IMG/VR virus record: IMGVR_UViG_2563366802_000013
Span: 1 to 44,878 of that record
Source of the DNA: a virus
Lineage: Duplodnaviria; Heunggongvirae; Uroviricota; Caudoviricetes
Length of the DNA stretch: 44,878 nt
Strand: one strand, 5' to 3'
Shown here: one piece after another, positions 37,549-38,607 of the stretch
Layout of the letters: the number at the start of each line of letters is the position of its first letter
Position numbering within the stretch: position 1 is the first letter of the stretch
Made by a program: the position numbers and the translations under genes
Notes under the pieces: model-generated
What the model was told of the DNA's origin: nothing
The model's database searches: none
What the model saw: the letters and a program-made list of their open reading frames with translations, nothing else

Positions 37549-37635
37549 ATTGCCCGAAATCCCCCCCCCGCCACATTTTTTACAAAAATAAATTCATTTA
37601 GTTATCAGTGCATTATAACTTATGTGATGATAATT

Positions 37636-37677
37636 ATAAATTAGGTTATTGCCATCACTCATAACTAAGGTTATCTT
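37636..37677 (+). promoter_or_regulatory. OL operators and candidate pL promoter
   Basis: Operator palindromes at 37636-37649 (ATAAATTAGGTTAT) and 37661-37674 (ATAACTAAGGTTAT), 25 bp apart; -35 TTGCCA (37649-54) and -10 TATCTT (37672-77) with 17-bp spacer; same operator/-10 overlap as pR. Confidence 0.55.
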
Positions 37678-38279
37678 TAATCCATCGAAACGAAACATCG
37701 ACAGCTGAGCTAAGTTAGCCAGCGGCGGACAGCAAGTCGCCTGCTCATTAAGAATTCAGTCAAGCAGCAAATCACCCGGAGCGCTCCTGGCAAATTGAAA
37801 TGGCGCCCAATGGGATTGAGGCAGGTGTGTAACGCGTGGCGGGTATAGCACACGAAGAGGACTCCGCACCGGAATGGTTTGCTGCTCAGTTCCCGAACAT
37901 CGGGGGATCTTCAATAGGAATGTTTTGGGATTGGATGAATGCGCAGGCTGATGCGCGGGGTGGAGCGGCCCGGGTGGCTACTGAATCAAGACAGGCTGTA
38001 AGACAAGCTGTGTAAATAACTGGTAAGCCGTAGTAGCCAATAAAGCAGGTGAAAATCATAACGTCTATCCCGCCTCGGCGGTGGCAGCTAACACCTGTGA
38101 TAGTCAATGCCGGAGATCAGCACCGGCCATCCAATCACCAAAGCATTTCGAAAGTTCCTGGCTAGCCGCTGCCACACTTTTCGACGCGGCACACCGTATC
38201 GGAGGAATTATGTAACAGGTAACAGTGACGACTGAAAACCAACATCGAGGAATAACTTACAGCTCCAAACAGGAAGAAC

Positions 38280-38429
38280 ATGCAAAGCCTGCTCATCCTG
38301 TCCCTATTGCTAACGGTATGGCTTAGCCGTAACGCAAGAACGCAGCGAGAACCTTCAGAAAGCAAGCAGATCGCTATCTCAACCAGCTTAACGCGTTCAA
38401 GTAGCGCAGAGGCACATCATTTCAGGTGA
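38280..38429 (+). CDS. Candidate small hydrophobic protein (49 aa)
   Basis: Below track cutoff; ATG preceded by AGGAAG SD; N-terminus MQSLLILSLLLTVWL predicted membrane-spanning; only sizeable RBS-bearing ORF in the pL leader. Confidence 0.3.
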   Translation: MQSLLILSLLLTVWLSRNARTQREPSESKQIAISTSLTRSSSAEAHHFR

Positions 38430-38607
38430 TGGGTTGTGGGGACATATAAATCTGATTTAAGCCCGGTCGCCCATGCCGATTCATGGGCAGTTATACCTCA
38501 GTCGCTTCACCGAGGCGGCTTAGTTATGACAACCGGCGGCCATCCACCGCCCATTAGCGCAGAAGTCTTTTAACGTTCAGCGGCCCGGCTTAAGGGCGGA
38601 GATGATT

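Follow-up and report, generated by a model that had tools for sequence, protein, structure and literature searches.

How RNA polymerase gets across a long untranslated leader in a lambdoid prophage with no recognisable N gene is the question raised by the locus described here. The window, i.e., the whole analysed stretch of 44,878 nucleotides (nt) from IMG/VR virus record IMGVR_UViG_2563366802_000013, is a lambdoid prophage, and the leader of its early-left (pL) operon runs for about 920 nt before the first conventional gene. The answer suggested by our analyses lies in the 5' part of this leader, in a boxA-linked multi-helix RNA here named element W (37740..37905; all features are on the + strand of the window unless stated otherwise). 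W is a well-defined covarying RNA, unannotated in the records inspected; more than 100 phage contigs carry it, as do E. coli prophages. We have high confidence that W is a real structured RNA module alternating with boxB and N. Antitermination may be its job, for which our confidence is moderate, about one half.

A sigma-70 promoter, TTGCCA-17-TATCTT, was located by promoter scan at 37649-37677 (-35 at 37649-37654, -10 at 37672-37677), within the block of OL operators and pL at 37636..37678. It is identical to the putative pL of the HK639 record, and the operator repeat around it is also present at OR, 36022-36064. Since this promoter matches the HK639 pL and lies among operator repeats, the early-left operon is read on the + strand from about 37683; the candidate pL of the preliminary description was confirmed. 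Between this start and 38602 the longest + strand open reading frames (ORFs) encode 59 (GTG start, 37836..38015), 49, 45, 44, 42, 38, and 33 amino acids (aa), in line with the earlier statement that no ORF of 60 aa or more follows pL on this strand for about 900 bp. The ORF poverty is within random expectation, as the longest ORF was 59 aa or shorter in 647 of 2000 shuffles. The stretch 37509-38713 is by far the largest in the window without an ORF of at least 70 aa on either strand, barring one spurious antisense ORF; other gaps in the window are at most 229 nt. The small leader ORFs had no match in Pfam, PHROGs or NCBIfam, and a panel of 13 N and Nun proteins gave nothing at E<0.1 in the whole window by either BLASTP or TBLASTN, which agrees with the earlier failure to recognise an N gene. 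No tRNA was called by ARAGORN anywhere in the window. Rfam gave no match over the whole window at gathering thresholds, and at E<=10 over 37400-38800 only chance matches of terminator type, the weak ones at 37496-37601 all being to terminator hairpins.

The consensus structure of W was obtained by RNAalifold on an alignment of 29 representatives. It consists of a long-range helix P1 (37763-69 with 37880-86), a second helix P2 (37776-83 with 37865-72), an invariant UCCU/AGGA helix, two hairpins (D, 37805-22; E, 37825-53) and a 3' hairpin (37891-37905). The single-stranded CUCCUGGCAAAUUGAAAUGGC at 37784-37804 is invariant, as is AGAGGA at 37856-61. In the 29-sequence alignment the fold has 34 pairs with 99.0% of the cells paired. 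Both sides were changed in 10 of the 34 pairs, compared with 0-2 when the partners were slid by 1-3 columns, and the covariation score was 0.331 versus at most 0.036 in the slid versions. Compensation also occurs within a clade, e.g., AGCAGC/GCUGCU has become AGCAAC/GUUGCU in loci L010 and L132. The 59-aa GTG ORF was rejected as a gene, having no ribosome binding site (RBS) and spanning a module breakpoint at 37911/37917; its conserved part falls within W, and substitutions there are compensatory and not codon-like. A covariance model, R1, built from the W alignment located a single copy in the window, with a score of 165 bits (E 8e-42). A weak further match (12.5 bits, E 0.17) on the - strand at 34277-34452, within the O-like replication gene and next to 11-bp iterons (TGGACA repeats, 34475-34579), is probably due to chance, because only P1 aligns.

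The boxA-like site noticed earlier was located at 37742..37754. This sequence, TGCTCATTAAGAA, is the presumed binding site of NusB and NusE (S10) and is homologous to the boxA annotated in nutL of phi80. It has TGCTCATTA at 37742-37750, hence GCTCATTAA at 37743-37751, and aligns column for column with the phi80 boxA; relatives carry CTGCTTCTTTAACAA or CGCTCTTTAACAA in this column. Lambda-type nut sites have a boxA of CGCUCUUUAACAA-like consensus 3' of an early promoter, and TGCTCATTAAGAA is such a boxA. Upstream of it the conserved 5' leader, 37682..37741, comprises an invariant 20-mer (37682-37701), hairpin 1 (37704-37723) and hairpin 2 (37724-37741), and is unchanged across phages of different immunity. 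The 20-mer alone retrieved at least 120 viral contigs, and compensatory variants of both hairpins were observed among relatives, as judged by eye.

A degenerate pattern derived from the most conserved stretch of W retrieved at least 119 viral contigs, giving 78 distinct cores. W was always found 10-12 nt 3' of a boxA, at the extreme 5' end of the early-left transcript, and in the window it begins about 57 nt after the presumed transcription start. R1 found exactly one copy per locus in 76 W-bearing loci. Two arrangements were observed: in phi80-like phages W comes after the shared pL leader, and in a second group it stands directly behind unrelated promoters, preceded by the consensus boxA CGCTCTTTAACAA. 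Of 5426 complete E. coli genomes, 104 have the latter variant, which is unannotated among the matches listed. The W leader segment of the window was matched in 126 E. coli genomes, three of them with at least 80% coverage. In the prophage of enterotoxigenic E. coli H10407 and in phage vB_EcoM-606R2, W lies just after the repressor gene and heads the early-left operon, despite unrelated promoters and replication modules. Among species-representative genomes, W was found in Pseudocitrobacter, Citrobacter, Trabulsiella, Enterobacter, and Pluralibacter, and BLAST placed it only in prophage contexts. We found no description of W in Rfam, in the inspected record annotations, or in the literature searched, which left out most subscription papers.

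The composition of the leader was mapped by BLAST against phages and E. coli genomes, and by scanning viral contigs for the invariant 20-mer at the transcript start. There are sharp module breakpoints at 37727, 37754, 37911/37917, 38150, 38245, and 38492, and every segment recurs in other loci at 95-99% identity. The leader hairpins with boxA (37682-37754) are common to phi80, HK225 and many prophages, and to HK639 only up to 37727; the segment 37755-37911 recurs in Enterobacter phages and E. coli prophages, while 37917-38150, 38160-38245, and 38246-38492 were each found in differing sets of loci. This mosaic had been overlooked in the preliminary description, as had the long hairpin described below. 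Its suggestion of a structured non-coding RNA was borne out, since alignment with related phages, which it had proposed, recovered conserved, covarying structure for two modules, W and the long hairpin.

The loci sharing the pL leader were distinguished into five classes by what follows the leader: HK639-type put (32 loci), phi80-type RNA (42), W (17), divergent W (2), and boxA with a short boxB-like hairpin (36). In the short-hairpin class an arginine-rich N was found right after the long hairpin in 27 of 30 evaluable loci (MNSKQRYNARR..., MNAKERKKLAR... and similar), compared with none of the 17 W and 2 divergent W loci. The N panel gave a BLASTP match in only one (L238) of 127 W loci. A recurrent ORF with a basic N-terminus was looked for in 107 distinct W loci, and only singletons were obtained. 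Conversely, R1 had no match at E<=0.01 in the 22 N-encoding loci searched. Our analysis thus shows that at least four elements can replace one another on the common pL leader scaffold, i.e., boxB with N, HK639-type put, phi80-type RNA, and W.

Overall, this leader is built on a lambda-type nutL/N-leader scaffold, in which boxA and the long hairpin are of known kinds. The order of elements behind pL agrees with that in lambda: the leader hairpins come first, then boxA and an RNA element, then the long hairpin, and last the RBS of the first gene. The long hairpin at 37917-38149 is the lambda element, and the sequence family of its closing helix is common to both. Unlike lambda, the window has neither N nor a boxB hairpin; a 165-nt four-helix RNA takes the place of boxB, and a cassette of small ORFs the place of N. 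Indeed, no hairpin of boxB type (5 bp with a GNRA-like pentaloop shortly after boxA) was found in the window leader, and no nutR-like second site in the window. A second copy resembling W, nutR, or putR was sought by repeat analysis, by boxA patterns, by the W motif allowing 3 mismatches, and by R1; the only result was the chance-level match at E 0.17 in the replication-origin region of the window. In the pR operon there is no leader repeat on the pR strand, no convincing boxA, and just a 30-nt gap after cro.

The put sites act in cis without phage proteins, and their action is blocked by mutations in the zinc-binding domain of the RNA polymerase beta' subunit. W resembles the put sites of HK022 and HK639 in being a cis RNA with which the pL transcript begins, in a lambdoid phage that has no working N. 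HK639 also shares with the window pL and the first 48 transcribed nt, and its record annotates a put-like RNA after this same leader. The put RNA works alone, just 3' of pL; it is about 70 nt long with two stem-loops, and is present as putL and putR (PMC9378689). W differs from it in being a 125-165-nt junction of four helices, single-copy and preceded by boxA, and R1 gave no match in the putL of HK022, the putL of HK639, or the phi80 leaders. A put of HK639 type is absent from the window, where the BLAST match ends at 37727; a right-hand put copy is annotated in neither the phi80 nor the HK639 record. Homology of W with put was considered for a GGCGGG...GAAGAG motif common to both by eye, and was rejected as resemblance only, as R1 had no match. 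Of the antitermination element like HK022 put that had been proposed earlier, the mode of action is thus retained as a probable one, and the kinship with put is not. In HK022 (L245, ~4236-4250, - strand) the sequence GCTGCTCATTAGCG, which contains the same TGCTCATTA as the window boxA, directly follows putL.

With the rrn antitermination leaders (boxA, Nus factors, SuhB), the W loci have in common a near-consensus boxA (CGCTCTTTAACAA in many W loci) that heads a long untranslated transcript, one that has to evade Rho with no phage protein taking part, whereas the rrn leaders have no W-like RNA, and Rfam shows no relation. Also close is the "nutL" leader of phi80, which is shared from the start site through boxA (93.6% over 78 nt), as are the long hairpin and the block upstream of kil. 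It differs in that boxA is followed by another long RNA (with CACGUAAACGUG) and a 98-aa non-basic protein, both absent from the window. Homologues of this 98-aa "N" of phi80, which has no arginine-rich motif, occur behind both phi80-type and W-type leaders (L051 1387-1683, downstream of a true arginine-rich N at 349-588; L007/L008 1183-1479; L002 2418-2714). As it lacks the arginine-rich motif and stands beside a true N in L051, the protein may not be a boxB-binding antiterminator. In L101, L019, and L048 (~150-280 of their leads) a divergent phi80-type post-boxA RNA keeps the "nutL core" hairpin through a change of CACG-UAAA-CGUG to CGCA-CAAA-UGCG, and co-occurs with a short arginine-rich N of 51-56 aa. 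By the features that define them, W is neither a boxB nor a put, yet it probably works like them.

The second covarying module is the lambda-type N-leader long hairpin, 37917..38149. Its closing helix of about 21 bp joins the 5' end, GGAAUGUUUUGGGAUUGGAUG (37917-37937), to the 3' end, CAUCCAAUCACCAAAGCAUUUC (38128-38149), and encloses internal hairpins at 37941-56 and 38109-27 and a variable interior. The minimum free energy is -95.5 kcal/mol (z = -3.0). Among relatives we found 59 distinct versions with interiors of 30-150 nt, some of them in tandem. Over 24 distinct closing helices, 13 of 19 pairs were changed on both sides, and the covariation score was 0.544 versus at most 0.109. The lambda leader between pL and N folds into the same element, GGCUUUGGGGUGUGUG...CACACACC-A-CCAAAGCUAACUGACAGGAGA-AUG (z = -3.1), and the closing-helix family GGxxUUUGGGGUGUG...CACACC-A-CCAAAGC is common to the window and lambda. 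The lambda-type 3' flank of the hairpin also precedes the lambda-type N in L238. The interval from nutL to N in lambda is highly structured (PMC5725501), and the N leader is described there, with reference to Wilson et al. (1997, 2002), as a target of RNase III that modulates N translation. The comparison shows that the RNase III-sensitive N-leader hairpin of lambda is widely conserved, modular, and kept even where N is gone. A degraded gene, the remaining option of the preliminary description, is wrong for most of the region, since the gene-like part, antisense to 37917-38107, is this hairpin; the gene that has disappeared is N.

The apparent antisense fragment of an "ECs_2282 zinc-binding" gene at 37917-38150 was rejected as well. 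In the E. coli proteins the family model reaches no further than the C-terminal 60 aa, the N-terminal extensions differ from one another, and the antisense ORF of the window has no match. RefSeq coding sequences of the "ECs_2282 family putative zinc-binding protein" in E. coli MB20 and CX21 (L003 2387-2860 and L007 3625-4077) appear to be N-terminally over-extended by PGAP (the Prokaryotic Genome Annotation Pipeline) across the antisense of the N-leader hairpin. In addition, ARAGORN calls the long hairpins of some relatives tRNA (L001, i.e. HK639, 3222-3291; L097, lead coordinates 616-686), and these have a canonical T-arm, an acceptor stem, and CCA. Processing by RNase P is a possibility in those phages; for the window such a tRNA-mimic reading was not adopted, as the likeness is confined to a few versions from other phages.

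Taken together, we consider, with slightly better than even confidence, that the region is the leader RNA of the early-left operon in a phi80/HK639-like lambdoid prophage without N, and that boxA with W provides N-independent protection from termination. In the proposed mechanism, boxA would recruit NusB-S10, and W would fold co-transcriptionally and do without a phage protein what boxB with N does in lambda and put in HK022. W would convert RNA polymerase to a form resisting Rho and terminators, and the enzyme could then traverse the untranslated leader of ~920 nt and transcribe kil and the recombination genes beyond it. RNase III probably continues to cleave the retained long hairpin, a cut that would detach the 5' element from the mRNA downstream. 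The untranslated distance is comparable in the H10407 prophage, where ~850 nt lie between W and the first + strand gene. A terminator-like hairpin was found within 2.5 kb downstream in 84 of 107 W loci, and the phi80 and HK639 records annotate terminators there.

Several observations weigh against this explanation. The terminator-like hairpins number 0.98 per locus, compared with 0.79 in the antisense control, and in the window there is no strong intrinsic terminator between the leader and 44068, so that the task of W here would be mainly anti-Rho. That W acts in antitermination we infer from where it lies, from its link to boxA, and from the lack of an N gene. No relationship between W and put was detected, and W, unlike putL and putR of HK022, has no second copy in the pR operon. 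Much of the covariation in W separates merely two or three clades and therefore represents few independent events. The elements of the closing helix of the long hairpin were chosen by a complementarity filter and their bulges trimmed, which biases the percentage paired and leaves the diversity of pair types unaffected. Finally, the W locus L238 also encodes a close homologue of lambda N. No lambda-like boxB was found in the 5.15 kb of this locus, which we read as a recombinant, and the exclusion between W and N is not absolute.

The coexistence in L238, together with the great diversity of N proteins and the nut-site architecture of a boxA with an adjacent RNA, would also suit a W that is the nut-type site of a non-arginine-rich protein antiterminator encoded elsewhere in the phage. 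The examined loci span at most ~15 kb, so a distant protein partner could have escaped. We regard this as quite unlikely, because no gene family recurs among the diverse neighbours of W, the early regions of W-bearing phages can be unrelated to one another, and known N genes directly follow nutL and the long hairpin, a slot in which the window has no such gene. W could also be a regulatory or processed RNA unrelated to antitermination, i.e., a sensor or leader for translation or RNA stability, or the precursor of a small RNA. Multi-helix junctions with invariant single-stranded stretches are seen in protein- or ligand-binding RNAs, in the consensus-boxA variant a short hairpin and a U-run come soon after W (by eye), and RNase III cleavage of the long hairpin could release W. 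However, the strict link to boxA and the transcript 5' end and the exclusion with boxB and N point to the role of boxB and N. In lysogens pL is repressed, so a small RNA from this promoter would be made only during lytic growth, and such a role for W appears unlikely.

That the leader is recombination debris, in which N and other genes were lost and the remains are functionless, might be suggested by its patchwork with sharp breakpoints, by an ORF poverty that alone is not statistically unusual, and by the prophage of E. coli ET729, a close relative with the same immunity region that has a 98-aa gene in the slot. This reading we hold to be highly improbable, and it is already largely refuted: the patches are themselves conserved modules that recur at 95-99% identity in many phages, base-pairing in two of them is kept by compensatory changes, and the apparent antisense gene fragment at 37917-38107 has no family match and equals the lambda N-leader hairpin.

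The part of the leader between the long hairpin and kil consists of a cassette and a conserved block. The first part of the cassette, 38160..38245, is a conserved leader with a Shine-Dalgarno sequence (SD), GGAGG, at 38201-38205 and a start-stop minigene, ATG TAA, at 38211-38216. It is near-identical in L112, L009, L103, L017, L065, L238, L246, L247, and L248. The second part contains the 49-codon ORF (38280..38429; MQSLLILSLLLTVWLS..., with a hydrophobic N-terminus and an AGGAAG RBS) and ends in a closing hairpin, GCCCAUG-CCGAUU-CAUGGGC, at 38469..38488. The latter stands at the place of tL1 without a U-tract, keeps its pairing through an A-U to C-G change in L238 and L246, and is replaced by canonical terminators in relatives. 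The 49-codon ORF had been described as the single RBS-bearing ORF of the leader; its RBS was confirmed, whereas other RBS-bearing starts lie at 38211-38216 and 38526, and the GGAGG before ATG-TAA is stronger than AGGAAG. The whole cassette (38160-38492) is conserved in L112, L009, L238, L246, L247, and L248. In L238 it precedes a lambda-type N, in L246 it comes after one, and the window and other loci carry it with no N at all; this varying position indicates an independent mobile unit, not a remnant of N.

The 49-codon ORF might encode a real small membrane protein, toxin-like or a moron, as functional cargo of the cassette, which would be compatible with the role proposed for W. In favour of such a protein are the RBS and the hydrophobic N-terminus, a frame open over 49 codons in 6 of 7 variants, a nearly invariant stretch of the first 16 residues (two synonymous changes and one non-synonymous), and the travelling of the cassette with the ORF as one unit. 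However, of the 24 variable codons 22 differ in amino acid, most of these towards the C-terminus, and the last two thirds of the frame evolve as though unconstrained. The hydrophobic stretch is only ~14 residues long, no family was matched, and just 7 protein clusters were found in a collection of 5.8 billion proteins. A simple consensus scan of the - strand at 38160-38492 found no promoter for an antisense antitoxin RNA. We therefore consider a genuine membrane protein doubtful.

The block upstream of kil and the early-left genes, 38493..38601, has hairpins at 38503-17 and 38535-51 which, with the closing hairpin of the cassette, account for the inverted repeats noted earlier near 38480-38600. 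Counterparts of this block occur in phi80, between tL1A and tL1B, in lambda-like phages and in E. coli prophages, and by our attribution it also accounts for matches of 80-90% identity in more than 2000 E. coli genomes. It contains a 15-codon ORF, MTTGGHPPPISAEVF (38526-38573), with an SD and a PPP stalling motif; in phi80-type relatives the sequence is MTTGGHPPPIETLNKCVEVLY, and the product may be a leader peptide. Minigenes of 1-3 codons with a strong SD (M*, MKH*, MKN*, MKQ*, MHK*, MVH*) were recurrent in pL leaders, i.e., at 38201-38216 in the window and in L102, L010, L211, L146, L228, L098, L127, and L050. They are often followed by a AGCGGACAGACCGCA hairpin and resemble the bar minigenes of lambda. 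The first conventional gene of the pL operon, 38602..38781, encodes 59 aa, is Cys-rich and gave a weak double-zinc-ribbon match.

On the other side of pL, the gene of a cI-like repressor (36100-36804) is followed by a 229-aa gene (36819-37508), and cro-like and YdaT-like genes run leftward on the - strand from 35989. The 229-aa product has a signal-peptide-like N-terminus; the gene holds the position of lambda rex, between cI and pL, and is also present in the ET729 prophage. An intrinsic terminator, a hairpin with a T-run at 37524..37548, ends the transcript of cI and the 229-aa gene upstream of pL and outside the leader. The C9 homopolymer at 37561..37569 that had been reported within the leader does exist, but it lies 5' of the -35 element of pL and is therefore absent from the leader transcript. 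This C-run between the terminator and OL varies in length: the ET729 prophage, whose immunity region is the same, has C8 in its place (L005 1563-1570).

Processive antitermination has two textbook models, lambda N and HK022 put, and lambdoid phages that lack N are at present simply assumed to be "put-like" (e.g., PMC12315714). More tentatively, and at somewhat less than even confidence, we propose that boxA with W may constitute a third, previously unrecognised route to termination-resistant early transcription in temperate phages. In it a four-helix RNA of about 150 nt would replace boxB and N, act with host Nus factors or directly on RNA polymerase, be unrelated to put in sequence and fold, be widespread in prophages of Enterobacteriaceae, and be swappable with boxB and N and with put behind the same promoters. 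If W is an antiterminator, it would offer a new effector of RNA polymerase or Nus factors for structural study and a compact N-free read-through part for synthetic biology, and would serve as a marker by which the early operons of N-less prophages may be annotated.

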